DNA of 64,000 nucleotides from positions 15,314,001 through 15,378,000 of the forward strand of contig CM102286.1 of the NCBI GenBank assembly GCA_046563655.1, given 5' to 3'. This document shows positions 34,001-59,600 of the stretch, one piece after another. This DNA is from Yuukianura sp. NJ FZ-2021. Lineage: Eukaryota. Positions within the stretch are counted from its first letter, which is position 1, and every line of letters begins with the position of its first letter. Position numbers and translations under genes: made by a program. The notes under the pieces are model-generated. The model was not told the origin of the DNA and ran no database searches. It was given only the letters and a program-made list of their open reading frames with translations.

Positions 34001-37000
34001 ATTTCAACTCAAAATGCAAGTCAAAAAGGGGGCTCCAAAATGGAACTCAAATTGGGACTCCTAAACCCTCTCCTAGTTTCAACTCAAAATGGAAGTCAAA
34101 ATTGCACTCCCAAATGGTGCTCCCAATGTGACTCCAAAATGGGTCCCAATTTAAATCTAGAATTCCATTATGACTCTAAAACGGAACTCTAGTTCAAACC
34201 CCCCGCCATGGGAAATGTAATGTATAATATTAAACGCGGGTCAAACCCCCGGAGACGGGAAATCTAACAAAAAATATCGAACGTAGGTCGTAATTTGACT
34301 CCAAAATGCTGATCCCTATATGACTCCAAAAATAAAATTCCATTATTTACTCCGAAATGGAAGTCAAAATGGGACTCCAAAAGCCCTTCATCTCAACTCA
34401 AAATGGAAGTCCAAATGGGACTCCAAAATGGAATTCCCAAATTAACTCCTAAATGGAAGTCGAAATGGGATTCCAAAATGGACGTATTTTTAACTCAAAA
34501 TGGAATTCCAAAATGGAAGTTAATTTGGGATTCCAAAATGGAAGTCAAAATGGGACTCCTAAAGGGGTTAGTTTCAACTCAAAATGGATGTCAAAATGGG
34601 ACTCCTAAAATGGACGTATTGTCAACTCAAAATGGAATTCCAAAATGGAAGTTAATTTGGGATTCCAAAATGGAAGTCGAAATGGGACTCCCAAAGCCCT
34701 TCATCTCAACTCAAAATGGAAGTCAAAAATGGACTCCTAGCAAGATCGGCCCCAGGGGTTACACTAGATGTTGATGTTTTAGTGAGAGATCGGCAAGATA
34801 GCTGTATGGGTTACTCCAAACCCCTGCCAAATAGGACTCACGAAGCACTTCATTTCAACTCAAAATGCAAGTCAAAAAGGGGGCTCCAAAATGGAACTCA
34901 AATTGGGACTCCTAAACCCTCTCCTAGTTTCAACTCAAAATGGAAGTCAAAATTGCACTCCCAAATGGTGCTCCCAATGTGACTCCAAAATGGGTCCCAA
35001 TTTAAATCTAGAATTCCATTATGACTCTAAAACGGAACTCTAGTTCAAACCCCCCGCCATGGGAAATGTAATGTATAATATTAAACGCGGGTCAAACCCC
35101 CGGAGACGGGAAATCTAACAAAAAATATCGAACGTAGGTCGTAATTTGACTCCAAAATGCTGATCCCTATATGACTCCAAAAATAAAATTCCATTATTTA
35201 CTCCGAAATGGAAGTCAAAATGGGACTCCAAAAGCCCTTCATCTCAACTCAAAATGGAAGTCCAAATGGGACTCCAAAATGGAATTCCCAAATTAACTCC
35301 TAAATGGAAGTCGAAATGGGATTCCAAAATGGACGTATTTTTAACTCAAAATGGAATTCCAAAATGGAAGTTAATTTGGGATTCCAAAATGGAAGTCAAA
35401 ATGGGACTCCTAAAGGGGTTAGTTTCAACTCAAAATGGATGTCAAAATGGGACTCCAAAATAGACGTCCAATTAGACTCCCAAAGAGTTTAGTTTCAACT
35501 CAAAATGGGACTCCAAAATATAAATCAATTTGGGATTCCAAAATGGAAGTCAAAATTGGACTCAGAAAGCCCTTCATCTCAACTCAAAATGGAATTCCAA
35601 ATGGGATTCCCAAATGGAAGTCGAACTGGGACTCCTAAAGGGGCTAGTTTCAACTCAAAATGGATGTCAAAATTGCACTCCCAAATGGTGCTCCCAATGT
35701 GACTCCAAAATGGGTCCCAATTTAAATCTAGAATTCCATTATGACTCCAAAACGGAACTCTAGTTCAAACCCCCCGCCATGGGAAATGTAATGTAATAAT
35801 ATTAAACGCGGGTCAAACCCCCGGAGACGGGAAATCTAACAAAAAATATCGAACGTAGGTCGTAATTTGACTCCAAAATGAAGGTCCCTACTCGACTCCA
35901 AAATGCTGATCCCTATATGACTCCAAAAATAAAATTCCATTATTTACTCCGAAATGGAAGTCAAAATGGGACTCCAAAAGCCCTTCATCTCAACTCAAAA
36001 TGGAAGTCAAAATGGGATTCACAAATTAACTCCAAAATGGAAGTCCAAATGGACTCCCAAATGGAAGTCAAAATGGGACTCAGAAAGCCCTTCATTTCAA
36101 CTCAAAATGGAAGTCAAAATGGGACTCCAAAATGGACGTATTGTCAACTCAAAATGGAATTCCAAAATGGAAGTTAATTTGGGATTCCAAAATGGAAGTC
36201 AAAATGGGACTCCCAAATGGAAGTCGAAATGGGACTCCAAAAGCCCTTCATTTCAACTCAAAATGGAATTCCAAATGGGATTCCCAAATGGAAGTCAAAA
36301 TGGGACTCCAAAATGGAAGTCAAAATGGGACTCCTAAAGGGGTTAGTTTCAACTCAAAATGGATGTCAAAATGGGACTCCAAAATAGACGTCCAATTAGA
36401 CTCCCAAAGAGTTTACTTTCAACTCAAAATGGGACTCCAAAATATAAATCAATTTGGGATTCCAAAATGGAAGTCAAAATTGGACTCAGAAAGCCCTTCA
36501 TCTCAACTCAAAATGGAAGTCGAAATGGGACTCCAAAATGGAATTCCCAAATTAACTCCTAAATGGAAGTCGAAATGGAACTCCAAAAGCCCTTCATTTC
36601 AACTCAAAATGGAAGTCAAAATGGGACTCCAAAATGGACGTATTGTCAACTCAAAATGGAATTCCAAAATGGAAGTCAAAATGGGACTCCCAAATGGAAG
36701 TCGAAATGGGACTCCCAAAGCCCTTCATCTCAACTCAAAATGGAAGTCAAAAATGGACTCCTAGCAAGATCGGCCCCAGGGGTTACACTAGATGTTGATG
36801 TTTTAGTGAGAGATCGGCAAGATAGCTGTATGGGTTACTCCAAACCCCTGCCAAATAGGACTCACGAAGCACTTCATTTCAACTCAAAATGCAAGTCAAA
36901 AAGGGGGCTCCAAAATGGAACTCAAATTGGGACTCCTAAACCCTCTCCTAGTTTCAACTCAAAATGGAAGTCAAAATTGCACTCCCAAATGGTGCTCCCA

Positions 37001-38830
37001 ATGTGACTCCAAAATGGGTCCCAATTTAAATCTAGAATTCCATTATGACTCTAAAACGGAACTCTAGTTCAAACCCCCCGCCATGGGAAATGTAATGTAT
37101 AATATTAAACGCGGGTCAAACCCCCGGAGACGGGAAATCTAACAAAAAATATCGAACGTAGGTCGTAATTTGACTCCAAAATGCTGATCCCTATATGACT
37201 CCAAAAATAAAATTCCATTATTTACTCCGAAATGGAAGTCAAAATGGGACTCCAAAAGCCCTTCATCTCAACTCAAAATGGAAGTCCAAATGGGACTCCA
37301 AAATGGAATTCCCAAATTAACTCCTAAATGGAAGTCGAAATGGGATTCCAAAATGGACGTATTTTTAACTCAAAATGGAATTCCAAAATGGAAGTTAATT
37401 TGGGATTCCAAAATGGAAGTCAAAATGGGACTCCTAAAGGGGTTAGTTTCAACTCAAAATGGATGTCAAAATGGGACTCCAAAATAGACGTCCAATTAGA
37501 CTCCCAAAGAGTTTAGTTTCAACTCAAAATGGGACTCCAAAATATAAATCAATTTGGGATTCCAAAATGGAAGTCAAAATTGGACTCAGAAAGCCCTTCA
37601 TCTCAACTCAAAATGGAATTCCAAATGGGATTCCCAAATGGAAGTCGAACTGGGACTCCTAAAGGGGCTAGTTTCAACTCAAAATGGATGTCAAAATTGC
37701 ACTCCCAAATGGTGCTCCCAATGTGACTCCAAAATGGGTCCCAATTTAAATCTAGAATTCCATTATGACTCCAAAACGGAACTCTAGTTCAAACCCCCCG
37801 CCATGGGAAATGTAATGTAATAATATTAAACGCGGGTCAAACCCCCGGAGACGGGAAATCTAACAAAAAATATCGAACGTAGGTCGTAATTTGACTCCAA
37901 AATGAAGGTCCCTACTCGACTCCAAAATGCTGATCCCTATATGACTCCAAAAATAAAATTCCATTATTTACTCCGAAATGGAAGTCAAAATGGGACTCCA
38001 AAAGCCCTTCATCTCAACTCAAAATGGAAGTCAAAATGGGATTCACAAATTAACTCCAAAATGGAAGTCCAAATGGACTCCCAAATGGAAGTCAAAATGG
38101 GACTCAGAAAGCCCTTCATTTCAACTCAAAATGGAAGTCAAAATGGGACTCCAAAATGGACGTATTGTCAACTCAAAATGGAATTCCAAAATGGAAGTTA
38201 ATTTGGGATTCCAAAATGGAAGTCGAAGTGGGACTCCCAAAGCCCTTCATCTCAACTCAAAATGGAATTCCAAATGGGATTCCCAAATGGAAGTCGAACT
38301 GGGACTCCTAAAGGGGTTAGTTTCAACTCAAAATGGATGTCAAAATGGGACTCCAAAATAGACGTCCAATTAGACTCCCAAAGAGTTTAGTTTCAACTCA
38401 AAATGGGACTCCAAAATATAAATCAATTTGGGATTCCAAAATGGAAGTCAAAATTGGACTCAGAAAGCCCTTCATCTCAACTCAAAATGGAATTCCAAAT
38501 GGGATTCCCAAACTAACTCCAAAATGGAAGTCGAAATGGGACTCCCAAATGGAAGTCAAAATGGGACTCACAAAGGCCTCAGTTTTAACTCAAAATGAAA
38601 GTCAAAATGGGACTCCAAATTGGAAGTCCAAAATGGAACTGGAAGTCAAGATGGACTCCAAACCCCTCAATTTCAACCCGAAATGGAAGTCCAAATACGA
38701 CTTCAAATTAGAATGCCAAATGCGACTCCAAATGGAAATAAAAATGAACCCAAAATTTTGCTCCTGAGTCAGGCGCACTCGTATCAACCAAAAATAATGT
38801 CCAAGTGGGACTCCAAAATAGCACTCCCAA
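31100..38830. repeat. Satellite array 1: 12-bp-based (AAAATGGGACTC / CAAAATGGAAGT) with higher-order units
   Basis: GGACTCC and GGAAGTC cores at ~12-bp spacing. Non-12-mer inserts recur at 32881, 34186, 35037, 35757, 37061, 37781 and at 33886, 34737, 36761, giving periods of 851 and ~2024 bp. A 170-bp duplication lies near 31780-32120. Confidence 0.95.
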
Positions 38831-39118: not shown

Positions 39119-40381
39119 ATGGAAGGTGAAGCAGGTATGCAATGTTTATTTAAAACATTTGTGAATGTATTTTTGAATATTTACATGCCGTTATAATTAG
39201 TAAGCGCACTTTTTGATAAAGGTGACAGCCAGAAGGATTATGGCCAATTGGATAACGAAAAACTTTTATCGTTTTACTCCGCGCACCCCAACATTTTAAG
39301 AAACGACGAGAGAGGACGAAAAGGACGCGAAACGTTGTGGAACACTTTTCGAGCGACAAACAATTCCGACTTGTCAGGTAATTTGTGATTATGGTTGTAG
39401 CGTAGCACCACTTTAAGAATTCAACAATTGTACGAAAGTGCGGAGTTGGGAGTATTCAAGAATTTGAACGCTTTCAGTTGAGGACATTCAAAACAAGCTC
39501 ATCGATCTTCTTGGGAAATGGAGATCGTCAGACGTCGACACCCTCATTTCTCACTTTCGAGAAAATCCGATGTTGTGGGATGCATCTCGTTCCGATTATA
39601 AGGACCGCGTGGCAACGAACATTTGCATCGAAAACCTAGCAAGAAAATTAAACTTTCGAAAAACATGTAACTAAACAAACGATTTAGTATTCGACAAATT
39701 ATAATTGTCATTTTTTTCTTAGCTGCTGAGATTCTAGCAAAGTTTGATAACTTGCGAACTACTTTTCAAGCCAAAATCAAAAAAGGAAAAACGGGCGAGG
39801 GAAGAAAACTAGACAAACGATGGCCATACTTTCAAGACCTGACGTTTCTAGAGCAAGCTGGTGTCAATCGATCATCCTTAAACATTATAACGGTAAGAAG
39901 AGACTGACACGTATGAGTTGATGATTGTTATGACTTTTAAATTTAACGTTTTATCTATTATTAGATCGCTTCAAGTCCATCCGTTACATCGTCTTCAAGT
40001 CCATCCAATACAGATTCGGAAGGCAACGAATTCCTGGAATATAAAGGCAGACCGCCGTATCCTACAACATCAAAAAACGCGTTTGCTGGATCTGGAAAAA
40101 AAGTGTTTTCTGAAACTGGAAAATACGTGTTCGCTGGAACTGGGAGTAAGCGCAAGCATAGCCCTGGAGATCTACAAAGAAGTCAACCACAGCACAAACG
40201 AAACTGTACAGATGAGAAACCAGATGGGTTAACCTCCTTCGGAACGAGTATTGGAGAAGCGCTCCGGAAATTTACGGATACAAATCAAGAGCTGGTAAAA
40301 GCAGAACTTCAAAAACTTCTGGCAATCTCGCTACGACATCAGTCAAAAGGCCTAGATGTTCCAGTATTCAAGTTATGTTAG
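39119..40381 (+). CDS. MADF (Myb/SANT-like in Adf-1) DNA-binding protein with C-terminal BESS-like motif
   Basis: Spliced translation has WRSSDVDTLISHFRENPMLWDASRSDYKDR...KFDNLRTTF...RWPYFQDLTFL, an upstream degenerate MADF-like segment (KLLSFYSAHP...LW) and DGLTSFGTSIGEALRK...KAELQKLL. Five exons. Confidence 0.85.
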
Positions 40382-40519: not shown

Positions 40520-40839
40520 CATCGAGTTACCAAGACAATTCGATTTTTTCTTTTAACTAGAGTGGACATAAGGCATTTTTTCAACAAAATTTTTGAAACA
40601 TTTCTAGAGCGGATAAAAACCGCTTTCATCTCAACTTTAAGCCAGTTTCACACAAACTATGAACTGCAGGTGTCTTTTTTGTGCCACCTGCAGTTCATAG
40701 TTTGTGTGAAACTGGCTTAAAGTTGAGATGAAAGCGGTTTTTATCCGCTCTAGAAATGTTTCAAAAATTTTGTTGAAAAAATGCCTTATGTCCACTCTAG
40801 TTAAAAGAAAAAAAATCGAATCGTCTTGGTAACTCGATG
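40520..40839. mobile_element. Palindromic MITE (hAT- or P-superfamily-like), 320 bp, 8-bp TSD GTTTTTAC
   Basis: Near-perfect ~153-bp arms starting CATCGAGTTACCAAGAC. Identical 8-mers at 40512-40519 and 40840-40847. Confidence 0.9.
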
Positions 40840-40876
40840 GTTTTTACTACCTAGAATCAAGGGTGGAGGTTTGAAC

Positions 40877-40957
40877 CATAGAGTTACCAAGACGATTCGA
40901 TTTTTTTTCTTTTAAAAGGTCAAAAGAAAAAAATCGTATCGTCTTCGTAACTCTATG
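40877..40957. mobile_element. Internally deleted 81-bp copy of the same MITE family, 8-bp TSD GTTTGAAC
   Basis: Termini CATAGAGTTACCAAGAC / GTCTTCGTAACTCTATG. Identical 8-mers at 40869-40876 and 40958-40965. Confidence 0.88.
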
Positions 40958-41080
40958 GTTTGAACTATTTCATTAGCTTATTGTCAAAATGTTAACGTAG
41001 TCGGAGTTGACCCATTCTACATACTATTCTAGTCGCATCAACTTGTTTGGTGTTTATTTCGTGTAACTTGTCTTCTAACA

Positions 41081-42170
41081 ATGCAGTTCGGACGAGACGC
41101 CAAGCCATTTCGGTGCAAATACATAGAAATGTACAACTTAAGGTACAATAAATGTACGAAAAGTAAAGAAAGAGACACCGATCTGAATGAAGAAGCGCTT
41201 TGCGTGGAAACTGCTTTGTCTTTTCCGTATCTGGGAAATCCGGATGATGAGGAAACCGAAGGAGACAAATTTTACAAGCAAGAGTTTGCAAGCGTAAAAC
41301 ATCGACGCATAAAACCGAAGCCTGTTAATGCTGCAAAACCTCAAACTATTGTTGCAAGTATCCCATCATTGGCTTGCGACCTGTTGGAGGATTCTAAAGT
41401 GTACGTCGAAAAACTGTTGCAACAACTTTGAATGATACTAACCTTTTATTCTTGAGTAGAGAATCTAAATGTGCCGTCGATGTCCCGGCAAATTTAGCGG
41501 TGCCACCAATCGATGTGTTAGCTACCCATAATGAAAATATTTTGAGGAAAGCAATTGCCTTAGTTCAGTAAGTTTTTGCCAACAATATGTTAGGTTAGTT
41601 TAGTCTTGAGTATAATTCTTCATATTCTTCTAGAGAAGGCGACTCCGATGTCCCTTGCGTTGGCGATGATTTTGTTGTAAAACCCGTTAAACTAGATGCT
41701 CCAGTGGAACGTGAAGAACTGATTTGCCCCAGTAGTTTGGCACCTTTGAATATTGAGCTTACTACACAAGTCCCACGGTTAGCATTAGTTAAGGTTATGT
41801 TAGTTTTCGTGTCTATCCAACAATACTATACGTGTCTAATTCTGTTTTGTGTTGCAGGAAGCGTGTGCCAAGGTTTTTTCTCAAGAATATAGAGAAACTG
41901 TTACTAGATTGCATTTACGAGGTTGCTGTTCATAGTGGGATGGACTCATTGGGAAGGAATGAACTCAAATGGAAAAAAGTATGCGAATTAGTTGCAGCTG
42001 GCAAAACTGATTTGAGAACAATACAATGGAAATGGCGTAGCCTAAAAAAGTATTTCTATGAGAAGCTCCTGAAGACGCATCGCTATAAATGTTATTATAC
42101 AAAACACTCTCCCATATATAGTTACTTTGAGTCTAAATACAATACAAGGCCGAAAATTAGACTTATGTAA
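41081..42170 (+). CDS. Spliced gene with C-terminal Myb/SANT-like (trihelix/MADF-like) domain
   Basis: Last exon FFLKNIEKLLLDCIY...LKWKKVCELV...RTIQWKWRSLKKYF. Three short putative introns. 5' end uncertain. Confidence 0.6.
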
Positions 42171-43204: not shown

Positions 43205-46111
43205 ATGCCAAAGGGTCAGTCCACAACCGTGTTTCGGCGTTGGAAGCACGTAGAATGCTCCGAAATTGAGGAGTTTGCTAAAACAAGGTCAAACCATAAA
43301 CCTACTTATGTTGAATTTTGGAGAACGTGTTCTCTTGTCAAGGTAAACTGTACTATTAGTGGTCATTTTCGTTAAGGTAGTTATTCACTCAATAATTCTT
43401 AATAATGTTCATTTCAGAACGGGACACGTACTGCAATGGGATGCAAAAATAAGTATTTGGAAATTATAAAATCCAAAACAACTTTGAATCCTGGAAACCG
43501 ACCTGTTGATATTTGGAACGGGCAGCAGGCGGCAAGTCCCATGAAACTGTTTCTGCAACGGGAAAAAGCGAAAGCTACGGAAGATAGCGATGGTTCGTTC
43601 TTGCATAAAAAGATGAGTATTATTTCTGCTAATAACAGTCGGTTTCATTTCAGACGAGATCGAGATTATTCGAGAAATAAAGGCGGAAAACACCAGCACA
43701 TTACAGTCTCAACTGAAGGCTTACGGATTTATCAAAACTGAAAAACAAACAGGAGAGGAATACTCCGATCGGTGCGGTTCACTGAATACGTCTAAAAAAC
43801 TACCTAGAAACCAAAGTCAACTGGACACCCCTGTTCAAGAAATTACACCTATATTCGTTGAAAGCCCTACATCATCATCATGGAAAACCAAGCCACAGTA
43901 CTTGCAAAAAAAAAGGAGGATTGACAGTTTCGACGTAGACGGTTAGTTTGTTTGTGAGTGACTACGTAGCAAGCATTACAGACTGAACCATTTTTATTGT
44001 TTTTCATTTTATATGCAGATGTTAGAGTCGAGAATTCGCCCAAGGCGACCACGTCACGCGCTGATATCAAGGAAGCTGATGAAACGATTTCTGTCACAAA
44101 GAATTTCCCACAGAATAGTGTTTGCCAGTCGTCTATCACACATCAGTCACCCATCCTTCCATCAGGTGATAATCATATCCCAAATTGGTTAAATGCTAAT
44201 TTCTCAGTTTGATTCAACTTTTGACTTTAGCAGCTAAGCGTTCAGGTTTGGTGATCAGTGCGGAGACAAGCAAAAAGTATATGAGTATGTATAAGCGGGT
44301 CAGATCACATCAAGATTCGGACATGAACGACATTCGTTTAATGGCGCTTAACATTGACACGTATGCTCACTCGCACACAGCCTAACCTAGAAGTAATATT
44401 ACAACTCACTGTTATATATTTTCTTACCTATTCCTTTTTAGTGTCGTCAACATTGCCTACGATATGCTCGGGTAATTGCTGATATTATATTCATTTTCGT
44501 CAAATGTTCAATTACTCACACTAACTAAACGCTTCCGTGACAGATTCACTTGTGAGTGCAATACCGAGAAAATGTTGGAATCAATTTTAATTCCTGAAAA
44601 GTCAACCGGAGAATCGGCCGACTTGAAAAAGCTTCTAATGTTGTAAGTGATTAGATTAAAGAGTTTATGTTGAATCTTTTTTATTTAATCATTTTTCTTT
44701 TTGTTGCAGCAACATCTTTGCAAGCCACAGTAATATTCGCTTCGTGGAAAAATTTGAAAGTATCGGCTTCAAGTTGTGTTCTGTAAGATTGGAGAATGTT
44801 GCGAACCCATCATGTAAAGCTTCTACAACGCAAGCAAGTTCATTGGCAGTTTTGCGTGAAAAAGATAGTAGTTCACTGCCTTGTACGCTAGAATCTGATG
44901 GTGATACATGCGGCCAAACTTCCCCACAGTATGAACTCACACAGTTAGCACCTGAGACGAATATTGAAAACGCCGAATCCACCACACCCAAGGGATTGGC
45001 TAGCAACATTGTAAAACTGGTAATACCTATGCAGTTGCTTAATTCCAATTAGGTTAGGTTTTCAATCCTTAGTTTTCTAACTCGCATTTTATTTTCCAGT
45101 CCGTTGATCGTGTTGCCAGAGTATACGTTCACGATTTGATGCAAGCGTACGGTATGCACCGGAATGGAAGTTTGTCACAAAAGATTACGGCAGTGTTGCA
45201 TAAAGGGGCAGAAATTCTTTCCAATTTGAATGGCAATCTCGCTGTAGTGACTGAGTTGGTTTACGTAAGTTTTTGCTGTAATTTAGCTACGCTGCTACTC
45301 ATGTTAAGCCTGGTTTTTTATATTTCAGTTACGAGTTGTGTCAAAGGCAGCTGGATCCGGAGTAAGGGTTGATATTTATCGAATGGAAAAGAACGTTCCA
45401 AAGGTGCGAAACGTCTTAATGTATTTTGGAACTGAATTGGAGACAATGATTTCTGAAGGCGACGTGGTTGTAGCAAATGGAGCTTGTAATAAACCCACAA
45501 ATTCAACAAAAGTCATATTCTTTAACCCGGCTTGGGCATTAATGGAAGTTATTCTGCTAAAACTGGTTGGTATTATCGATTTTATTCCCGTCTTTACTGC
45601 AATTGTGATGACAGCGGTTTAGTAATACGTTGTGATTTTTTAGGACATGCGGGAACTGGTTATCCCAATTGACGACAGGAGAGCTATCCCCGTGGGACCC
45701 ATGATGGACACTTTCCTCTTAGAGTGTACATTGGATATGGATTACGTAACATCTGTGGTCAAACTTGTTTGCAATGCAACTGAAGATGAAATTTTTGCCG
45801 TCATTTCGAATCCAATGTTTAAGAACAAAATTCTGCTTACATTTGAAAACTTATTTAACGACAAGGTGCAAGTGAGAATTACTGACAACCCAACTAGTGA
45901 TGAAAATGATCAAGATTATGCGTTTTTACGAGTAAAGCCGTTATTCTGTTCCAATAACGTTTTTACTTTGGAACCAAACGATACAATTAACTCATACTTT
46001 GAATTCGACCCCATTGAGTGCGACAAAGTGAATCGGCTGCTGCTGATGTTTGTTGCATCCACATCAACACAACATGTGACAGTCTCTCTGGAGTTGGTAC
46101 TTCATCACTAA
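43205..46111 (+). CDS. Multi-exon protein with N-terminal Myb/SANT domain and a shared unknown helical domain (paralog 1)
   Basis: RRWKHVECSEIEEFAK...PTYVEFWRT...|NGTRTAMGCKNKY. Central exons align with the gene at 51552. Internal exon structure around 43540-44230 is uncertain. Confidence 0.7.
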
Positions 46112-46498
46112 GACCACGGAATTAAAATGTGGTTTAAACAATTCTTTCAAGATTATGTCACCAGTGATTTTGACTGTAAATTATGACACCCAACGTGTAT
46201 AAGAATTTTTAAATTAATTTCAAATTATGCATCAGTAACATTTGGTGTATTAAATCTAGTAAAACCTTACGCCAGGTATATGATTGTAAATAATAGGGCA
46301 TTTAAAAAGCTAAATAAACTGACTGACTAAAATTGATGAAAGAATTTTTTAGGTAGTCACAATTATTGAGCCACTATTACAATGAGAGACAGCTAGAAGA
46401 GTGGGCATTTTGTTTTTTTTTCTTCACAGTTGCGAAATTAAACAGTACGGCTTTCAAGGAAAGTTGCGGGCAGACGTTTCAAAGGAGTTACAGCAAAA

Positions 46499-46803
46499 GT
46501 CGGGTTCATATGCGAACCCTTTCACTTAGGGAATAGGGGAAGGAATGCAGTTTCTGCCTTTCAGCTTCGTTTGACGAAGCTCACAAAATCCTGTCTGCCC
46601 AACCCTTTTGGAGCAGTTTTTCTGCCGCAGTTTTGTGAGTGTAAACAGAAGCCGCAACTCCTTTCGGCAGAATAACGTGCCAGCAACTTTTGATTTGATA
46701 AAATTTTCTCCACATTCCATTCTCTAATGTGAACACGCATCAGCAGAGACCACCCAGAATTCGAGCAGAAATCTGCGAGTTGCGGTGTAATGTGAATCCA
46801 GCA
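46499..46803. mobile_element. Second remnant of the same old transposon family, opposite orientation
   Basis: Imperfect terminal inverted motifs GTCGGGTTCATAT / ATGTGAATCCAGC, and internal similarity to 42703-42842. Confidence 0.5.
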
Positions 46804-46958
46804 TTACGTTGAAGAAGTACTGTGTTAATTGTTTGGCACCAGTCTAACCACCCAACAGAGGTTGCTGAGCGATAGTTAGTTGGCTTGGAGTAAGGTCACA
46901 GAAGAAATGTATCGGACTCAAGTTACGCATGTGGACAGTTAACTAGTTAACCTCAGAA

Positions 46959-49264
46959 ATGGGTAAGTTGTTGGCCTTTAATCCGTTTCTATTCATGTTG
47001 TGTAAACTTTTTTTAATTTGTCCTTTATCAGATGTCAATTTGGATGGAATTGTGATTTCTACCACATCGTGGAAGTGCTTGCCTTTATCCATTGGAAACA
47101 TGAGCATATTTGGTCGACTAGAATGTAAAATCGTTTCTTCGTCCTGGCTTAAGGGATCGGCAATTGCTTCGAGTCCAATAATTGTAAAGGTGTACATGAC
47201 AGAGTACTCTGGCTTTGATTTGAGCATTGTGTTGCAAAGTGACAATCGTATCGACTTCAAATACGTTCTTAACCACATCTACAACTCGTTTTATGATGCA
47301 TTAAATGATAATGTAGTAAGTCATCGCATCAATGTTATTTATAACAAACAGCAAGTTGACAATTCTTCTATAATTCAACTGTTTTCAATTATTTATAGAT
47401 GGCGGGTCGGAACACGTCTGTTCGGTATAGCCAAATGCGAGGCAAAGAAAACTTTTTGTCGTCGTCCTCATTCGTAGTGTTTATTGAAGATATTGAGATT
47501 TTTGGAAGTGTTTTACATCACTATGTTAACAATCGATTGCCCGAGTATAAACCTCTGTTTGTTCTCTGCAAATTCGGACAGAGTGGATCGTTTCAACGAA
47601 TGGCTTCTATTTTGTCGTCTATCTCATCAATGGAAGACGTATGTGAACTCGTTTTGCACGTAGCATATGATTTACCTGCTGATCAAGGAAAAATCCTACT
47701 TTGGAACAGAAGTGTGGTGTTTGATAAAATGAATCATATTAACAATTTGTATACTTTCGAGTACTTCGTTGGCGGTATCCCTGGTTACGGAAACTTCACA
47801 TTTGAGTCAAAAGTACATGAGCCTACCATGATTCTCGGAAGTTCGAAACTTAAGAAAATCAAGTTTTACTCTTCATTAGGAAAGTATCTTAGCAGTCAAC
47901 CCAATGTACCATTTTCTCAACCAAAGGTTTCCGAACTGCTTCTGAAACTATCAGTCTTTGATAAGCAAGAAATTAAAGACTCATCAAAATTGACGGAATG
48001 CTTTCAAGACATAAATTGCATTCGTGGAATTGTTGACAAGATACAAACGGAATCGCAATATGCTAGATGTGAATTGATCATCAATGCCACTATTCGCGAC
48101 TCTATTCAGGAAACACTACAAGATGTACGTACACTCGCCGAATCAATTGTTCTGCAGCTCGAGCTTACAAAGTGTATTCAGCAATTCACGTCACAGCGTA
48201 TGTATTTCTTGATTGATCGAACCGTAGGATGTTGCTTGGACACAATTCTAGAACAACTCGTAGCAGCAGATGAAGCTATTGCAAATAGAAGGAATTATCT
48301 TCTACCCATTGACAAGTACAAGAGTTTACTCACCTGCGAAGCAATAGTTTGCTTTATGTTCAGAGGGAGTGCAGTATCGACAGGAGGAGTTCGTAGGCAC
48401 GACAATCAACTTTTACGTGTATTGGAACTTGTTCCAGGAGCATTCCGAGACTCATTCAGCCGTTCGGAATATCTTTTTGACGCAATATCTACTGTTGTCA
48501 AAATTGAAAATGGAAAAGTATGTTTCCATGGCCCTACTGAATTTCTCCCTCAGTACTTGTCAAAATTAAAATTGGATCCGGCTAAAGATTTCACATTTGG
48601 AGACCTTTTCAATGCCTTACACGAACGTTCAAAAATTGCTTACGCCGCGAAAATCGTCGCCGCCTGGATATTTTCATGCACCATCTACAATTTGCTTGGA
48701 AGAAAACAATCAAGTACAAATTGTGCCTTGACACATAGATCTGTTGCATCATGTAAAGACTTGACCATTGGTAGCGGATATGAAGTGGTGAAACTGCTTG
48801 GGAATAGTTCAAGTTCAATCATGTGGATTATAGATGAATGCAGGAAAGTGGCAGAAAGATATGGCTTAAAGGATTGCTGGACTCGGGCACTAGCCTGTGA
48901 GTTAGAGAAATGTGGATTTAGAAATAAGGATTACGTTTGTTTCAACTATGGAGCATTAGGAGACAGCTGTATAATTGTTTTGCCATATATTTGCCTTAAC
49001 TTGGACAAGATTCATATTGCTGTTCCGATATGGGTTAACGTAATAACCTCCGTTTTAAATGATGAAACGGAAAGTAATGACAAGGTAGTCCTAGCTGCCC
49101 AAGTAGAGGTTTTGTTACAACGTTCAGTAGAAAAGTTGAGCAGTACTCAAAGGGCATCAGTTAAAATACGCGACATGATCGGTAAATTATTTGATAATGA
49201 TGGTTTTACAAACTGTCAATCTGAAGAGTACAAATTGCTGTTCCAAAATCCCTTTCCGTTCTAA
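46959..49264 (+). CDS. Orphan protein of ~717 aa with a 1.87-kb final exon
   Basis: 621-codon open frame at 47399-49264 is preceded by a TTTATAG acceptor. Upstream exons 46959-46962 (ATGG|GTAAGT) and 47032-47315 join in frame. No family recognised with certainty. Confidence 0.8.
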
Positions 49265-49598
49265 TTAATTTAATTTGTAAAAATTTAACGCTGTTTTAGA
49301 GCAGCTGTTTATAAGCCTGATATAAATAAAGCTGTGGATAGAGAAATTCTACATTCGTTGTTCTGCAAGTTGGTTGTGGTTTGGGTTTTGCATTGAATAG
49401 TAGTTTTCGTTCTTTTTGTGGTAAATTCAAATTTGTTGCAGGTACCATCCAATTGCTTTCTGCAGTGGAGTAAAGATATCTGCTCGCACAAGTCGTCCCC
49501 CTCCTCTTTTTGTTCAGTTTAATGGTTCATTTATCAGATTAAGAAGCATAAAGTAAATTAACAACGTTTCAGTTAAAGTTGGCAATTTTACTTTTAAA

Positions 49599-50014
49599 AT
49601 GCGGAGACACTGCAGTACAAGTATGAATCGGAATCATTGGCTGCCGTCGGAAGTAGCTGAACTTGTTGCATTTGCAAAGAAATGGCCGAAGGGAAACCCA
49701 ATGCGCATCGAATTCTGGGATACCTTCTCAGCGGTTAAGGTTAGTAGCACAATATAAACTTGCTTCTGAGAAAGATAAATTGGCGGCTATTGTCGGGTGT
49801 TGTATTTCTTTTTTTTTGTCAGAACGGACGTCATACAGCCAGTAACTGCAGAGACAGATACGAATGTATTGAAGTGAATCGAAGGGTTGTGCATTCTAAC
49901 AATGAATCATGGATTTCCCTTGGGATAGAAAAATTGCAGAATGAAGGCACTATATTTCGCCATCCTAGCTATACACCCCGAAATAAAGGAACCATGCGTA
50001 AGACAATTCCATAG
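49599..50014 (+). CDS. Short or truncated Myb/SANT protein (paralog 2)
   Basis: HWLPSEVAELVAFAKK...PMRIEFWDTFSAVK|NGRHTASNCRDRY, with the intron at the same position as in the genes at 43205 and 51552. 3' end unclear, next to a transposon. Confidence 0.65.
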
Positions 50015-50143
50015 CCTAACCTCTGTTAAATGAAGCCCAAAAGCGTCAGGCTAAAATTTCGTTTGACAATAGACAGCCAATTTAAAAGCTTCTGTATTTT
50101 GAATTTGCCTTTAACCGCGTTAAACAAACCGTTTTCAAAACTA

Positions 50144-51286
50144 CCGTATTTTCCCGTAGATAATACGCGTATTATGTATGAAATTTCAAGGAATTTGGGC
50201 GAGAATTTTGTTTTTAATTTTGAAATCAAAGAAAAATTTTCACTGTAAAACGTAATGATGCTTTTGCCACTAAACCTAAACTATTCTAACTTAACTAAAC
50301 CTAATTTTTTGGAGAGATTGACCCGAGAGCATTTTTTTTCTGCCACGTACGCCCGAAAAATCTCCAACTTTTCCAACAAATCCTTCGGAAGTGACCAACC
50401 GCAGTACTTTATCGTATTGAAAACTTGTTTCTTTTTATGAATCTGACATACCAAGCATCACAAGCGCAAAACTCGGGTAATTCCTTTCATTTGTGTAGTG
50501 TCAAAGCCATACATTTCATGGAGTGTAGCGTAAATTTCATAAGTTTAAATGAGAATTGGTTAACGTTGATTTTAAATTTGAAAGAGTCCTGTACCTTACT
50601 GAAGTCCCTGCTACCCGGGCTCTCAGGTTACGTTTTAGAAAAAGTCGACTCACTAAACTAGAAGCTTGGGTTATAGTAAAGCGATCTAGTCCGTTTTACT
50701 ACTTAGAAATTTTTTTCGAGTGACATGACCTATGACAACCCAAAAAATGACCTCTACAAAAGTTGTTGGGCTTGATGAGGGGATCATTTTTGTCCTGTGA
50801 CATATGACCCTGTGACCTTCCGTTGAGGCGATAGGTCAATTTGAAAGTTAGTTAGGTTAGGTTAGGTTAAACCTTCAAATTGACCTATCGCCTCAACGGA
50901 AGGTCACAGGGTCATATGTCACAGGACAAAAAATGATCCTCTCATCAAGCCCAACAACTTTTGTAGAGGTCATTTTTTGGGTTGTCATAGGTCATGTCAC
51001 TCGAAAAAAATTTCTAAGTAAAACGGACTAGATCGCTTTACTACAACCGAAGCTTGAACTCGGCGGTGTACGATTTTCGTAATATCTTTTGTTTAGGATT
51101 CATGGTTGGTTAAGGTCAAAAGTATAAATTAAATGCGTACATTTAAATTAAAAAAAAGTTTCCAGAAAAATGAATTATTCTTAGATTGGGAAGCTTAATA
51201 CGCGTTGTTCCCGCCCAAACCCAGTTTTAGTAAATTTTTAGACTGCGTACTATACACGGGAGCGTATTATAGACGCGAAAATACGG
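50144..51286. mobile_element. Non-autonomous Tc1/mariner-superfamily (Tc2/pogo-type) element, TA TSD
   Basis: TA|CCGTATTTTCCCGTAGATAATACGC ... GCGTATTATAGACGCGAAAATACGG|TA. Confidence 0.8.
50669..51048. mobile_element. Foldback MITE (GG...CC termini, 8-bp TSD GAAGCTTG; Merlin- or MULE-like) with TTAGG repeats at its centre
   Basis: Near-perfect ~180-bp arms. TSD at 50661-50668 and 51049-51056. Centre TTAGTTAGGTTAGGTTAGGTTA. Confidence 0.9.
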
Positions 51287-51551
51287 TATTAGCTGTCAGT
51301 TGTGTTTTGCGTGTCAGAGTGAGTGATTGTGCTATTGGCTTAGAACAATATTGAAGGTTAGTAGATCTGCATCAAAAACACAGTTTTTCAGTGTTGCTGC
51401 CTATTGTCACAAAAAGCTTTGTAGTCGCTTTTCCTGATTAATTTTGTAAATACTCTTCTGGAGTTTTCTGCAAGTGGCGCTCATACCTCAATCAAGTGTT
51501 TCGTTTGTTCTGTTTCAAGTGTCGGGGATCAATTCACATAGAATTGGAAAA

Positions 51552-53088
51552 ATGGAATGGCCCGCGTCAGAAATCTGTGAGCTGATTGCATTTGCAGAGA
51601 AAGCATCGGACCGAGATCCTACTCACGAGGAGTTCTGGGACACCTTTTCCTCAGTTATGGTTGGTTCTAATATTTAGTTTTCATACTTATTTTTTCCATT
51701 TATTTTTAAATGTCCTAACACGTAATGTATTTTTGTTTATATTAGACTGGAGATCGAACTGCACTGAACTGCAAAGAAAAATACCAAAGCATTGCAAATA
51801 ATTTCACGTCATGTCGTTCACGAAATGCACACTCTCCATGCCAAGATGTTGTTGTAGACGCTGACAAATGCATCTTTCATCTAGGATCAAAGAAAAGAAA
51901 GATAGAAAAGGAGGCATCCAGTTTGCCTTTGCAGGAGGCTGAAGCTTCAGCTATACTTGACAATGACGGTAAAAATAATAAATAACAATGCATGTTTGCA
52001 TGACATGAACAATTTCTAAGTGTCCAAAATTCTATTTGTTTCTCATCGTACAGCTTTGGACAAGAGTAAATCAGGTCTGTCAAAGGAAAGCATCCCGCAG
52101 CAGAAAGCTTCTTCCGAAGATGACCAAAGGAACGTGTTTGCGGAAACTGATGTATCCGACGCAAATGTTGAAAATAACTACCTAGATGACATAGGTAAAC
52201 CAAAAATAGGTTTGTTTACGTTTTTTCACACCAGTCCCTACGTGACTACTACTTCTATTATAATGAATGAATGGGAAAAGATGTATTTTTCTGAATAGTT
52301 GGTCGGGAACTTGTGCTCAACAGTACGACTTTTACAACGTACTACGAGATGTACTGCTCAATCAAGGCAAATGTGTCATCAGCTACGCGGGAAATGCAAC
52401 TGATTGCAGGCAACATCGACAGGTTATATAGCTTAAGCGAAACTTAAAAGCTATTACGTTCCGTATAAAGGTATAACACGCGTATATTCCTTTTTTCAGG
52501 GTTCTGCAAATGACTTATAAGTTGTTGGGGTAAGACACATATGTCAATATTAGGTATAACCTAAGTATATACGTAATAATTTTTACTATTTAACTCTAGT
52601 TATGATGGTGCAACAAATCCTCACAAAATGCTGTCCGAAATTTTTGAGCCAGACATACCGAAGAGCGGAGATGAAGCAGATTTGACACGTATTTTGCTTT
52701 TGTAAGACTTATTTAAGTATAGGTATATTCAAACTTTAGTAAGCAAGAAACTAGTATTTATATATATATTTGAAATTCTAGTACCATCTACGCAAGCTTC
52801 AGTTATGTGAAGATGTTAAACAAGTGTACAATTGGAATCAATACGATGGTACCATTAGAGTCTAGCGCACCGTCAACATCTTCACCTTTGAAAAAGGATT
52901 TCCCTGCCATGTCGCGTACAAAGAATCAATCTGAATGCAAGCAAACGGAAGGCGACAACAGAAAGACAAAAGAAGAGAAAAAAACTAGAGCTTCCAAATC
53001 CGCTAAGAAAATGATCGGTTCGACCAAATCCAGACAGAAAAAACAAATTTCAGCTTCTAGCTCAACGGAAGTTTCTAAAAAAATATAA
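51552..53088 (+). CDS. Multi-exon Myb/SANT protein with the shared unknown domain and a basic tail (paralog 3)
   Basis: MEWPASEICELIAFAEK...PTHEEFWDTFSSVM|TGDRTALNCKEKY. Central exons are homologous to the gene at 43205, including a 30-nt micro-exon. Confidence 0.75.
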
Positions 53089-53449: not shown

Positions 53450-56345
53450 AGAATTGGAGTCCCGAGAAGACTCCCAAATGGAATCCAAAACTGGAGTCCC
53501 AAAGGTAACGCCAAAGGAAGCCAAAACTGGAGTCCGCTGTATGTTCCAGAATTGGAGTCAAAAATAGATTTCAAAACTAGCCCTTAAAACACGAAATAAA
53601 GTTCAAAACTGGAAACCCAAAAAGAACCCCAAATGAATTGCAAAATTGAAATTCCAAATCAAACCCCAAATGGAGTCCCAAAGTAAGTCCCAAATGCTAT
53701 CCAAAATTGGAGTCCTAAAGAGAGTCCAAAATGAAATCCAAAATTAGACTCCCAAAGAAAACCCCAAAGTGAATCCCAAATTGGACTCCTAAAGTGAGTC
53801 CAAAATGAAATCCAAAATTGGAGTCCTAAAGGGAACCCCAAAGTGAATCCCAAATTGGAGTCCCAAAGGGAGTCCAAAATGAAACCCAAAATTGGAGTCC
53901 TAAAGGGAACCCCAAAGTGAATCCCAAATTGGAGTCCCAAATGCTATCCGAAACTGGAGTCCTAAAGAGAGTCCAAAATGAAATCCAAAATTGGAGTCCT
54001 AAAGGGAACCCCAAAGTGAATCCGAAATTGGAGTCCCAAATGCTATCCTAAATTGGAGTCCTAAAGAGAGTCCAAAATGAAATCCAAAATTGGAGTCCCA
54101 AATTCAACCCCAAATGGAGTTCGAAATCGGACTCCCAAAGAGAGTCCCAAATGCTATCCAAAATTGGAGTCCTAAAGAGAGTCCAAAATGAAATCCAAAA
54201 TTAGACTCCCAAAGAAAACCCCAAAGTGAATCCCAAATTGGACTCCTAAAGTGAGTCCAAAATGAAATCCAAAATTGGAGTCCTAAAGGGAACCCCAAAG
54301 TGAATCCCAAATTGGAGTCCCAAAGGGAGTCCAAAATGAAACCCAAAATTGGAGTCCTAAAGGGAACCCCAAAGTGAATCCCAAATTGGAGTCCCAAATG
54401 CTATCCGAAACTGGAGTCCTAAAGAGAGTCCAAAATGAAATCCAAAATTGGAGTCCCAAAGAAAACCCCAAATGGAGTTCGAAATCGGACTCCCAAAGAG
54501 AGTCCCAAATGCTATCCGAAATTGGAGTCCTAAAGAGAGTCCAAAATGAAATTCAAAATTGGAGTCCCAAATTCAACCCCAAATGGAGTTCGAAATCGGA
54601 CTCCCAAAGAGAGTCCCAAATGCTATCCGAAATTGGAGTCCTAAAGAGAGTCCAAAATGAAATCCAAAATTGGAGTCCCAAATTCAACCCCAAATGGAGT
54701 TCGAAATCGGACTCCCAAAGAGAGTCCCAAATGCTATCTGAAATTGGAGTCCTAAAGTGAATCCCAAATTGGACTCCTAAAGAGAGTCCAAAATGAAATC
54801 CAGAATTGGAGTCCTAAAGGGAACCCCAAAGTGAATCCCAAATTGGAGTCCCAAATTCAACCCCAAATGGAGTTCCAAATCGGACTCCCAAAGAAAGTCC
54901 CAAATGATATCCGAAACTGGAGTCCTAAAGAGAGTCCAAAATGAAATCCAAAATTAGACTCCCAAAGGGAACCCCAAAGTGAATCCCAAATTGGACTCCT
55001 AAAGAAAGTCCAAAATGAAATCCAAAATTGGAGTCCTAAAGGGAACCCCAAAGTGAATCCCAAATTGGAGTCCCAAATGCTATCCTAAATTGGAGTCCTA
55101 AAGAGAGTCCAAAATGAAATCCAAAATTGGAGTCCCAAAGAAAACCCCAAATGGAGTTCGAAATCGGACTCCCAAAGAGAGTCCCAAATGCTATCCGAAA
55201 TTGGAGTCCTAAAGAGAGTCCAAAATGAAATTCAAAATTGGAGTCCCAAATTCAACCCCAAATGGAGTTCGAAATCGGACTCCCAAAGAGAGTCCCAAAT
55301 GCTATCCGAAATTGGAGTCCTAAAGAGAGTCCAAAATGAAATCCAAAATTGGAGTCCCAAATTCAACCCCAAATGGAGTTCGAAATCGGACTCCCAAAGA
55401 GAGTCCCAAATGCTATCTGAAATTGGAGTCCTAAAGTGAATCCCAAATTGGACTCCTAAAGAGAGTCCAAAATGAAATCCAGAATTGGAGTCCTAAAGGG
55501 AACCCCAAAGTGAATCCCAAATTGGAGTCCCAAATTCAACCCCAAATGGAGTTCCAAATCGGACTCCCAAAGAAAGTCCCAAATGATATCCGAAACTGGA
55601 GTCCTAAAGAGAGTCCAAAATGAAATCCAAAATTAGACTCCCAAAGGGAACCCCAAAGTGAATCCCAAATTGGACTCCTAAAGAAAGTCCAAAATGAAAT
55701 CCAAAATTGAGTCCTAAAGGGAACCCCAAAGTGAATCCCAAATTGGAGTCCCAAATGCTATCCGAAACTGGAGTCCTAAAGAGAGTCCAAAATGAAATCC
55801 AAAATTGGAGTCCTAAAGGGAACCCCAAAGTGAATCCCAAATTGGAGTCCCAAATGCTATCCGAAATTGGAGTCCTAAAGAGAGTCCAAAATGAAATACA
55901 AAATTGGAGTCCCAAATTCAACCCCAAATGGAGTTCGAAATCGGACTCCCAAAGAGAGTCCCAAATGCTATCCGAAATTGGAGTCCTAAAGAGAGTCCAA
56001 AATGAAATCCAAAATTGGAGTCCTAAAGGGAACCCCAAAGTGAATCCCAAATTGGAGTCCCAAATGCTATCTGAAATTGGAGTCCTAAAGAGAGTCCAAA
56101 ATAAATCCGAAATTGGAGTCCCAAATTCAACCCCAAATAGAGTTCCAAATCAGACTCCCAAAGAGAGTCCCAAATGCTATCCGAAATTGGAGTCCTAAAG
56201 AGAGTCCAAAATGAAGTCCAAAATTGGACTCCCAAAGGAAACCCCAAATGAAATCCGAAATTGGATTCCCAAAGAGAGTCCCAAATGCTATCCAAAATTG
56301 GACTCCCAAAGGGAACCCCAAATGACATCCAAAATTGAATTCCCA
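53450..56345. repeat. Satellite array 2: 12-bp-based (AAAATTGGAGTC / CTAAAGAGAGTC / CAAAATGAAATC) with 108-, 445- and 679-bp higher-order units
   Basis: TTGGAGTCC cores at multiples of 12 bp. Higher-order periods are visible as repeated identical pseudo-ORFs (53659/54104; 54857/55536). Confidence 0.95.
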
Positions 56346-56622
56346 AAAAAAAACAGCTGAAAAAGAATAGTACTTAAATTGAATCCAGGTTAGGCTTCTA
56401 ACATAAATCCCAAATCGCAGTCAAAAATACATCCCTACATTGATCCAATCAAATTTATACTTACTGCTCTGCTTATCTAGATTGTGGCCAGCGTGTTTCC
56501 TCTGTTTTTTGAAAAGTGTTCAGTTGAGTTTGGAAATCCGACCTGAACAGAACCTAGACTGTGAAACACCGGATCATTTTTTTTACATTCCTTCCACAAA
56601 CTAAGCCAAGCTTAAGCCGAGA

Positions 56623-59600
56623 ATGGAGGGAGCGCAAGAACAGGAGTTCAGCAATGCTGGTATTGATCCTGGATCTGCATCGGCTACTCCTAGCTTTGTC
56701 AAATACCAGCCGACATGTAATTTTAAAGTTTGCTTTAGTCGTACTGTTTACCGGCATTAATTTTTTTGTTTCTTTAGTGGCTTGCGCCCTACCTGAGAGG
56801 GTTCATCCAGCAAATGTTGTAGAGTCATCATCATTGGCAGCTATTAAGCTACCCCAACTGACGTATCGTGTCACACCATCGGTACTATACTGCAATGCCC
56901 TGTCCTCTTTACAAGTAGAAGCTATAGCTTTGAGCGGTCATACGCACAGTACCTTCAACGGTGATAGAAGAAATGCGATGCTTATAGGTGGGTTGTTCAA
57001 TTATGTTGTCTTATTGATATCTTAACCTTCGATTACTTTACTTCAAATTTAGGAGACGGGGCGGGGATTGGTAAAGGAAGAATTATAAGCGGGGTGATAA
57101 AGGACAACTTTGAGAAAGGACGCCGAAAGTCATTGTGGTTCTCGAAAACGTATAGCTTGTTTGACGACGCTTGCCGAGACTTTCGTTCCATTGGCCATAA
57201 AGCAAGTTATTTGAAAAGAATGGACCACGTCTTCATCGACGGTGCTATTGCTGCTGCTAATGAATGCTGTATTTTTACAACTTACGCTGCATTTCAAAGG
57301 AAGGGAGATGCAAAAGTTGCTGCTCTTTTATCATGGCTTGGAAAAGGCTTCAACGGGGTTGTAAGACTTTTCAAGGTTATATCTGCTTTTTCTACTTCAT
57401 TTATATCTCCTTTACAACAGATCGCACTTGACGAGTGCCACGAAGTGAAAAATGAAAAGTGCAGATCATCCAACATTATACATCAATTAGATACTTGTGT
57501 CCCTAAAGCTCGTATTCTCTACTCGTCCGCAACAATTGCAGAAACATTGGAAGGACTGTGTTATTTACATCGACTAAATCTTTGGGGTGAAAATACGCTG
57601 TACCCAGGTGGCTTTTCCCAAATGGAACAAGAACTCCGGAAAATGTAAGTTTCAATGTGTTGGCAGTAATATAACCTACCTAACCTAACTTTCATAATCC
57701 TGATCTAGTGGAATGCTTGGACTGGAACTTATTGCAATGGAGCTCAAGAGTCGTGGTGCTTACGTCGCGCGTCGTCTGGATTTTTCAGATGCATCTTTCT
57801 CTCTCGTTAAAATAAAACTCACAGAAGATCAGCGCGCCAAGTATAATGCGTGCGTTTCCATTTGGAACGACATTTACGACCATCTACTGCGACTTCAACA
57901 AAAATCTGTAAAGCGTTACTTTTGGGCGCAACACCAACAATTTTTCCGGCTGCTCTGCTTATCTTTTAAAATACCCGAAGTCATCAAAAACATCAAGTAT
58001 GCATAGCAAGGCAGTAATATGTGAGTAATATGAGTAACAATGCATTTTAATATTATCGCACGATCCTTTGTTGCAGACGCCATTTAAAAGAAGGCAAAGC
58101 AGTCATTGTAGGGTTGCAGTCAACGGGAGGGTTTTTGTCTGCGAAGCGCCAGCGACGCGAACTTAAACTTTTGTCGAGCTTGGAGTCTAAGCTTTTAAGC
58201 GTAGTACGTCAAACGTTTGGTGAGTGCCAACCTTTGTCTGTTCAGTATTTCATGCCAGATGTTTCGTATTTGTATCACTTGAAAACTAATACACAGAACC
58301 CGGCGTGCCGAGGTATGAAATGAAAATGAGGGTCGTTGATCTCAAATTGCCAGCAAGTCCACTAGATGCTCTGGTAAACCGTTTGGGTCCTCGTAAGGTT
58401 TCCGAGGTAATCTACATTTTTGCACTTTATCCTTACTTTATTTTCTTAACGTAACGTTGGTTTTTAATTCAGTTAACCGGAAGATCAGTAAGGCTGGAAA
58501 AAGTTGGAACCAAATTCAAATGGCGTACTATTCGAGGAGAGAAGAACGATCGTTTAACCCACTTTATGAACGGCAAAACTCATGTAGCAATCATCTCTGC
58601 TGCGTGTTCAACTGGAATTTCTTTACACGCCGACCATCAGGCTAAAAATCAAAAGCAGCGGGTGCATATGACAATTGAGTTGCCCTGGTCCGCTGAGCAG
58701 GTACAGTTCAATTTTTACTGCTAGGTAACCTAGGTAACCTTTGGGCAGCAAATTTAATATAATTTTTGTTACACATTAGGTCATTCAGCAATGCGGTCGA
58801 ACCCTTCGTAGCGGTCAGTCCAGTGTTCCAAAATATGAACTAGTTGTCGTGGATGTGGGCGGGGAGAATCGATTTGGTTTTGGCGTTTCTGCAAGAATGT
58901 CAGCGCTTGGTGCGATCACACAAGGAGATCGGACTTTTTCAATCAACAGCATCGAGGAATTTGACTTGAATACATTTTACGCTGGAGATGCTGTGACCTA
59001 CACTTTGAAAACGATTAGCACTGAAATACCGCCATTGATTCGATATCCTGGCACAAATATGATCACCTTCTTCAGCGAGGCCTTTAAAGTTTTATCCCCT
59101 GTCGGGTTAGTAGCGATGGGAAAACTTTCTCCGTACATGACGAAAACGATATATGTCAACAAATTCTTAAATCGGTAGGTTAAAGTTACGGTGTTTCCAC
59201 TCATGTAAGGTTAGGTTAGGTTAGGTTATGTTATAGTCATATACAGGTCGTATCATATTTTCTGTGTTACAGGCTTTTGGGTGTTCCGCTTCCGCAACAA
59301 AACACTATCTTCAATTACTATCTAGACATCTACAACCACACGATACAACAGCATAAACAAGCAGGATGCTATGAAGGAGGTGTTGTTGGTAAGTTGTCTT
59401 CTACTTATATTATTAAGAATTGTAACTTTAATGTATATTATTTTTGCTCTAGATTTTGGGAAACCGAAAGATTACAAAATCACTTCTGTCGCTTTAGAAG
59501 ACCGCAGTACAATTGAAATTTTTGCCGTTATAATCGACTGTGGAATTACCTTCGATCGAGCATTTGACATTTATCGAACTGAACGAAATTGTCAATTCTA

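Follow-up and report, generated by a model that had tools for sequence, protein, structure and literature searches.

What kind of sequence gathers several divergent Myb/SANT-like genes between arrays of short repeats near the end of a springtail contig, and do these genes belong to the host or to an element that has attached itself there? The question is raised by a stretch of 64,000 nucleotides from Yuukianura sp. NJ FZ-2021 (GenBank assembly GCA_046563655.1, contig CM102286.1, positions 15,314,001 to 15,378,000 of the forward strand), here called the window, which lies on the 15.51-Mb contig C4 of a 98.7-Mb assembly. Three of its genes, A, B and C, are paralogues with intact frames under selection, and they lie within a large block of foreign-looking codon usage that, on balance, is likely to be a giant mobile DNA element attached at telomere-type repeats behind a subtelomeric junction. 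The family is real, under selection and without an assignment beyond Myb, and what makes it interesting is where it sits: probably, though not demonstrably, in a new element that appends itself to telomeres.

When spliced by coordinates on the genomic DNA, each of the predicted genes A, B and C gives an open frame with introns of the GT-AG type (Table 1), and a phase-0 intron within the Myb-like domain interrupts the identical codon in all three, as the original prediction, made from the letters of the sequence, had claimed for the genes starting at 43205, 49599 and 51552. The second domain that it had seen in A and C, with identical intron phases and micro-exons, was recovered at exact coordinates, and every motif that it listed was present. 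This domain 2 (~105 amino acids, aa) is spread over four exons in both genes, with a phase-1 intron ahead of it and internal phases of 2/2/2, and the two versions share 34% identity with a local alignment score of 159, against a maximum of 56 among 300 shuffles. Gene A extends further than was first described, by three more conserved exons at 45100-46111 (exons 9-11), and its intron 2 measures 37 nt with the chosen donor or 61 nt with an alternative, equally in-frame donor at 43592.

The assignment to Myb/SANT held when a profile of eight spliced domains was compared with 16 Myb repeats of the host (HHalign probability 86%, E 5.1e-6). In a shuffle control (n=500), at most eight shuffles matched or beat seven of the eight domains, and 95 did so for the second A-type gene of contig C18. 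By this comparison the family fits the Myb/SANT pattern of a three-helix repeat with spaced Trp or aromatic residues and an RT..C motif; single Myb-domain exons were without a match in Pfam or the PDB. Over the first 70 aa the four A proteins carry a net charge between +7 and +13, and the two C proteins one of -5 and +1, which is suggestive only with regard to Myb-type DNA binding versus SANT-type histone binding. Domain 2 remains unassigned, as first reported, with no Pfam or PDB match in searches limited to its largest exon; a lead noticed by eye, the core-binding domain of tyrosine recombinases, likewise found no match in Pfam or the PDB and was dropped. The last exon of A (exon 11) has Atlas features like those of the immunoglobulin (Ig)-like domains of ASH, MSP, Cep192 and HYDIN proteins (score 0.95, 190 shared features, 10/10 top matches in one clan), a weak lead at a recognition value of 2038, under the mark of 2300, and neither Pfam, the PDB nor a word-based homologue search returned a match for it. 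Exons 9-10 appear OB-fold-like by eye only (exon 10), without Pfam or PDB support. PDB sequence searches with exons 1, 5, 10 and 11 and with the neighbouring genes D and E gave chance-level matches only, and a search with POT1 was uninformative, as its controls gave no signal either.

The three genes of the original prediction are genuine members of a family that is larger than was proposed. Genome searches and local tblastn found eight members at three places: A, B and C in the window, a second A, B and C at 16-26 kb of contig C6, and two A-type genes (A1 and A2) on C18, an unplaced contig of 145 kb. The five additional paralogues are intact, so that all eight frames are open (C6 B encodes 104 aa), and they belong to a multi-gene cassette that has a conserved terminus and a codon usage of foreign look and that recurs close to the ends of other chromosomes. 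All six genes with domain 2 in the genome keep its exon structure, intron phases and 30-nt micro-exon at 32-64% identity, with 15 invariant columns. Synonymous differences exceed non-synonymous ones in each domain comparison, and omega, the ratio of the two rates, is 0.29 for the Myb domain, 0.12 for domain 2, 0.32 for domain 3 and 0.09 for domain 4 between C4 A and C6 A; the values are rough, as synonymous sites are saturated in many other pairs. These comparisons support purifying selection on the family's domains and agree with the earlier proposal of old duplication. In weakly supported trees, the A-type Myb domains separate from those of B and C, and domain 2 pairs A with A across C4 and C6, so the duplications appear older than the split of the C4 and C6 copies. 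Confinement to these three places, near a contig end or on the unplaced contig, holds for the Myb exon (six matches and two more by tblastn), for 4/4 candidates of exon 10, for three of four matches of D and for six of seven of E.

The cassette has the gene order E-A-D-B-C in C4 and C6, with all genes oriented toward the contig end, and A1-D-E-A2 in C18, where an F-box-like gene follows. The two other genomic copies of D are 44-54% identical to that of C4, and synonymous sites are near saturation; conserved order together with such strong divergence points to old, separately evolving families of one cassette. No relationship could be detected between gene E and exon 1 of the A-type Myb domain, although this exon is without the third helix. 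The C6 copy of E (L008:6704-7012, C6:26.7-27.0 kb) has stops within the match, whereas related copies on C7 are open; it is either a broken gene or an assembly error.

Gene D is a candidate enzyme of the cassette. A profile search of 1.84 billion representatives returned 53 homologues at E<=0.001, mostly about 20% identical (one match, P0038, looks like a repeat-driven false match), and the family has invariant Tyr, Arg and Glu residues and near-invariant Gly-Gln, His-x-Ala-x-Asp, Asn, Lys and Phe. A set of invariant polar residues like this hints at a metal-dependent nuclease or a tyrosine strand-transfer enzyme. Among 30 homologues looked up, two clusters were named, from the springtails Orchesella dallaii and Folsomia candida, which points to a probable springtail host, and the others bore no name or were labelled "hypothetical". 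No consistent family was found for D in Pfam (with 53 members), PHROGs, NCBIfam or the PDB, an Atlas search gave weak, mixed matches, a word-based homologue search with D was empty, and one with the D profile recovered only two known members. The linkage of E and D exists outside this genome: a metagenome contig of 3.3 kb (L089) carries an E homologue (30% identity) immediately upstream of a D homologue, with no A homologue detectable.

Each cassette is flanked on both sides by arrays of short-unit repeats. Between C4, C6 and C18 these arrays share at most 7% of their 10-mers; within one place the shared fraction is 91-93% in C6 and 41-55% in C18.

The first 690 bases of the subtelomeric junction occur in 11 near-full copies at 92-100% identity, none of them more than 172 kb from a contig end. 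At two of these ends, C4 left and C8 left, the junction leads through 40-46-bp repeats into terminal telomere repeats and the block is absent; in the window and in C18 the junction is followed by just 8-10 TTAGG units and then by the block. Related block starts occur in C6, C7 (three times) and C18 (twice). At C7:32 kb a 97% copy of the C4-type end is joined to unrelated DNA; further C18-type ends, each behind a short TTAGG tract, lie at 126.6 kb (a truncated copy) and 140.4 kb. A terminal motif is common to the three diverged versions (C4, C6/C7 and C18), with seven occurrences in 647,983 bases and one in a further 166,046 bases, every one at a block start; three of these eight starts follow TTAGG tracts, four follow AGG in a G-rich junction tract and one follows CCTAA-type repeats. 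The alignment of the three 100-bp ends was beaten by just 0-3 of 2000 shuffles and by 0/656 internal windows. A terminal hairpin was significant at one of the three ends (z 0.97, -1.42 and -2.72).

Both ends of C7 (L054, L062-L065) carry short chimeras, three in all, that consist of a C6-type terminus with a 48-bp array and gene E only, followed by C4-type repeats and dead fragments of host genes. An internal copy of the junction with telomere repeats stands beside an assembly gap at C5:2.22-2.24 Mb (L071-L072), possibly a mis-scaffolded chromosome end. The C6 copy of the block is interrupted by an assembly gap, and an apparent inverted repeat around it, which spans an assembly gap, was rejected as a terminal inverted repeat.

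Codon usage sets the block apart, with a GC content at third codon positions (GC3) of 0.30-0.43 in 10 block genes versus 0.55-0.67 in four neighbouring host coding segments of the window. In both C4 and C18 a gene for a strawberry-notch-like superfamily 2 (SF2) helicase comes after the second array; the frame in C4 is open in each of nine exon stretches tested, the C18 copy is 48% identical, and a more distant copy in C8 (39%) was taken as the host gene. The outer block contains F-box/LRR genes, a chromodomain gene, coiled-coil orphans and a weak ISG20-like exonuclease, and it is partly common to C4 and C18, with longer matches at 76-96% DNA identity. The chromodomain gene is on the minus strand in both blocks (L018:7537-8446; L041:9789-L042:702), and the candidate ISG20/REX4-like 3'-5' exonuclease lies at L039:7099-7910 and L025:4040-4543, with ISG20 as the best PDB match (E 0.014).

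Table 1. Features of the window (positions count from its first nucleotide)
Feature	Position	Strand	Remarks
Universal subtelomeric junction	29011-30766	+	Host side of the joint; composed of 172-bp-type repeats, a core and a T-rich part
Joint	30761-30909	+	Two 50-bp telomere-associated repeats, then short TTAGG tract
Conserved block start	30910-31110	+	Terminal motif at 30927-30943
First repeat array	31123-38720	+	12/13/25-bp units
MADF-domain gene (approximate limits)	39120-40381	+	Pfam MADF_DNA_bdg above cut-off in two exons; only the C4 copy among stretches examined
Gene E (approximate limits)	41033-42170	+	Multi-exon orphan, Trp-rich C-terminal domain; 6 genomic copies; homologue upstream of D homologue in metagenome contig L089
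Gene A	43205-46111	+	11 exons, 736 aa; Myb/SANT-like domain, unnamed domain 2, domain 3 (exons 9-10), predicted Ig-like ASH/MSP-type C-terminal domain
Micro-exon of A	44442-44471	+	30 nt, inside domain 2
Gene D	46959-49264	+	717 aa; predicted nuclease/strand-transfer enzyme of an unclassified family, in which several polar residues do not vary
Gene B	49599-50014	+	2 exons, 110 aa; Myb/SANT-like domain only
Gene C	51552-53088	+	7 exons, 344 aa; Myb/SANT-like domain, domain 2, basic low-complexity tail
Micro-exon of C	52500-52529	+	30 nt
Second repeat array	53654-56347	+	Short units
Strawberry-notch-like SF2 helicase gene (approximate limits)	56600-60150	+	Pfam AAA_34 E 4e-39, Helicase_C_4 E 5e-21
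Gene G (approximate limits)	61444-62938	+	Orphan block gene, multi-copy (also in C4-distal and C18)

Several smaller features accompany the block. Small foldback elements with long inverted arms lie at 50590-51060 and 40523-40880 of the window, the first centred on doubled or tripled TTAGG units, and doubled or tripled TTAGG/CCTAA units are frequent in the introns of block genes (e.g., at window positions 45049, 57679, 59211 and 63117). A frame of 982 aa with DUF1759 (BEL/Pao-type; L033:5621-8566) is probably a later retrotransposon insert. On the host side, the window contains a 13.8-kb array of 315-bp units with 97% matches (1242-15041), which resembles by look an array of 315-bp period from C7:14,369, and then, at 16019-28822, what we take by eye to be host genes for a kinesin light chain, a UDP-glycosyltransferase, an RMDN-like protein, a lysocardiolipin acyltransferase and an MBT-domain protein. 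Fragments of the acyltransferase and MBT-domain genes recur in the distal blocks (C18:98-101 kb; C4:15,410-15,412 kb).

What is observed, and what the favoured reading builds on, is the structure of the genes, the selection on them, their synteny and location, the shared terminus, the codon bias, the D family and the E-D linkage outside this genome. The block would join chromosome ends behind the junction and telomere-type repeats, with E-A-D as its core unit. An ancestral E-A-D would have been duplicated in tandem, with two full A genes kept in C18, and C and B of C4 and C6 would be truncated derivatives of A (Myb plus domain 2, and Myb alone, respectively) kept by selection. The Myb proteins likely bind the block's own repeat arrays or its terminus. 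Protein A may act as an adaptor in which the Myb domain reads DNA, domain 2 provides oligomerisation or partner binding and the Ig-like tail contacts other proteins, D is predicted to be the cutting-and-joining enzyme, and the strawberry-notch-like helicase could unwind or remodel the DNA as it is copied. That the block moves as a unit, that the Myb proteins bind DNA, that D is catalytic and all of these domain roles are what we infer. More tentatively still, and with doubt prevailing, the block may represent a new class of giant (>100 kb) springtail DNA element that attaches itself to chromosome ends, is moved by D as its nuclease/strand-transfer enzyme together with a strawberry-notch helicase that it has captured, and encodes family-specific Myb adaptors in co-evolution with the satellite arrays of the element.

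A number of results weigh against a mobile element. No transposase (including DDE_Tnp_4), integrase, tyrosine recombinase, Helitron Rep, PIF1, polymerase or viral core family was found by Pfam in the scanned sets of 22+57+138 long frames, from which intron-split or unassembled genes could escape. None of 150 scored RVT_1 matches (405 candidates) for a reverse transcriptase fell within the blocks, and 12 reverse transcriptase frames plus TERT had no blastp match among 8543 frames, a comparison that a very divergent or split reverse transcriptase could escape. The residue pattern of D bears some likeness to the catalytic Asp/Tyr/Glu constellation of Rep_trans initiators, a kinship that the profile comparison did not support: HHalign gave a probability of 0.5%, within the controls, with 52/53 D rows used (rows with <=120 core residues dropped) and a shallow template of four sequences. 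In the assembly, neither a far end, a target-site duplication nor an empty site was found, and there was no inverted copy of the terminal motif at a far end, which may be unassembled; this assembly has one copy of each full cassette. As the terminal motif was derived from these very ends once they had been seen, its chance estimate of 0.04 flatters it, and the alignment controls carry more weight than its rarity. The two arrays that flank the C4 cassette share just 5-15% of their 10-mers, the block genes, like those of the host, are rich in introns, and no homologue of A, B or C was found outside this genome (metagenome contigs L089 and L090 included). The distal regions have a mosaic structure, with TTAGG scars and remnants of dead host genes; ordinary recombination at subtelomeres makes such mosaics too.

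The main rival is a subtelomeric cluster of the host, in which lineage-specific Myb proteins, spread by ectopic recombination and break repair, would serve as telomere, satellite or pairing and segregation factors. It fits the intact frames, conserved introns and purifying selection, the lack of a detected mobility enzyme and the presence, in these same stretches, of TTAGG scars and duplicated pieces of host genes, and the Atlas likeness of exon 11 to Ig-like domains speaks for it as well; each end would encode readers of its own satellite, with the Ig-like tail as a link to spindle or envelope. By itself, however, a host cluster leaves unexplained why a conserved terminus is reused at different joints in three diverged families, as well as the GC3 gap and the E-D linkage outside the genome; at least two ends (C4 left and C8 left) run straight into telomere repeats without a block, and telomerase is present in the genome, so that the block is not evidently a telomerase replacement. 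We regard a host cluster as possible and on the unlikely side. A long-endogenised large DNA virus that integrated at TTAGG in the manner of majaniviruses and gained introns, with arrays as homologous repeat regions and Myb proteins as regulators, would account for the size (>100 kb), the repeated internal arrays, the TTAGG at the joint and captured host-like genes (helicase, F-box, chromodomain and the weak ISG20-like exonuclease), and telomere-inserting crustacean nimaviruses with some intron-containing genes are described (PMC10871703). Its improbability follows from the introns in most genes examined, from the lack of any viral or nimaviral core gene or tyrosine recombinase by Pfam in the long frames (nimaviral proteins were not used as direct queries) and from D, which had no relatives in two IMG/VR scans and only two single weak matches in PHROGs. 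Slightly less probable again is a Terminon-like giant retroelement, or a derivative of Helentrons or PIF/Harbinger, with its enzyme gene unassembled or too diverged. The C6 copy is indeed cut at an assembly gap, and Myb/MADF genes and internal tandem arrays are traits of Harbinger and Helentron elements. Co-oriented genes, telomeric joints and exonuclease-like and coiled-coil frames also occur in Terminons (PMC6431247). The scanned frames nevertheless contain no reverse transcriptase, DDE transposase, Rep or PIF1, the hairpin is significant at one end of three, and the genes read toward the telomere, where attachment by an RNA 3' end would be expected to point them inward.

If the favoured reading of a telomere-appending element is true, the block would be a giant element that colonises telomeres with none of the known mobilising enzymes, and D would be a new enzyme family in which three invariant residues and several near-invariant ones offer themselves as targets for mutation. 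The diverged Myb proteins, paired with diverged arrays, would then also offer a natural and direct test of co-evolution between DNA-binding proteins and satellites. If instead the cluster belongs to the host, the family would supply candidate chromosome-end proteins of an early-branching hexapod, a group whose telomere proteins are poorly known.

Among known systems, the helper protein of PIF/Harbinger elements is Myb/SANT-like, and the Y' elements of yeast are helicase-encoding units that follow a universal subtelomeric junction and short telomere tracts and are exchanged between ends. Like Y', the block places a helicase-encoding unit behind a junction and short telomere tracts; unlike Y', it is far larger and has many intron-containing genes, a Myb family, internal satellite arrays and a helicase of the strawberry-notch type. 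This helicase also separates it from Helitrons and Helentrons, whose HUH Rep and PIF1 were both absent from the scanned frames. From PIF/Harbinger it differs in that D is no recognisable DDE transposase and that no terminal inverted repeats or target duplication were found (the far end may be unassembled), and it resembles these two-gene elements in having a predicted DNA-binding helper beside a putative catalytic protein (PMC9710019, PMC2836001). A single divergent Myb-like domain with a second conserved domain is also a trait of the telomere proteins TRF1/TRF2 and of TEBP/DTN (PMC8113555, PMC7819708). In contrast to these, the Myb domain of the family is N-terminal and by eye lacks the telobox signature, and for domain 2, of which one exon was searched, neither Pfam nor the PDB gave a match that would tie it to TRFH.

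Terminons of bdelloid rotifers are up to 40 kb in size and carry the Athena reverse transcriptase; they share with the block a giant, multi-gene make-up, a place at telomere repeats, accessory exonuclease-like and coiled-coil frames and captured host genes, and they differ from it in that no Athena reverse transcriptase was detected in the block, its genes point toward the telomere, it contains Myb, D and SF2 helicase genes and it exceeds 100 kb (PMC6431247). Majaniviruses and other telomere-inserting endogenous nimaviruses are similarly large and equipped with host-like genes, and they are joined to the arthropod TTAGG repeat, a tract of which precedes three of the eight motif-bearing starts of the block; in contrast to them, the block has introns in most genes examined and no tyrosine recombinase or viral core gene was detected in it (PMC10871703). 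No description of the block or of D was found in the literature searched, the scope of which excluded subscription journals and supplements. On the tests run the block is a member of none of these groups; its placement is most like that of a Terminon or of the yeast Y' elements, and its Myb helper with a candidate enzyme is like the gene pair of PIF/Harbinger.

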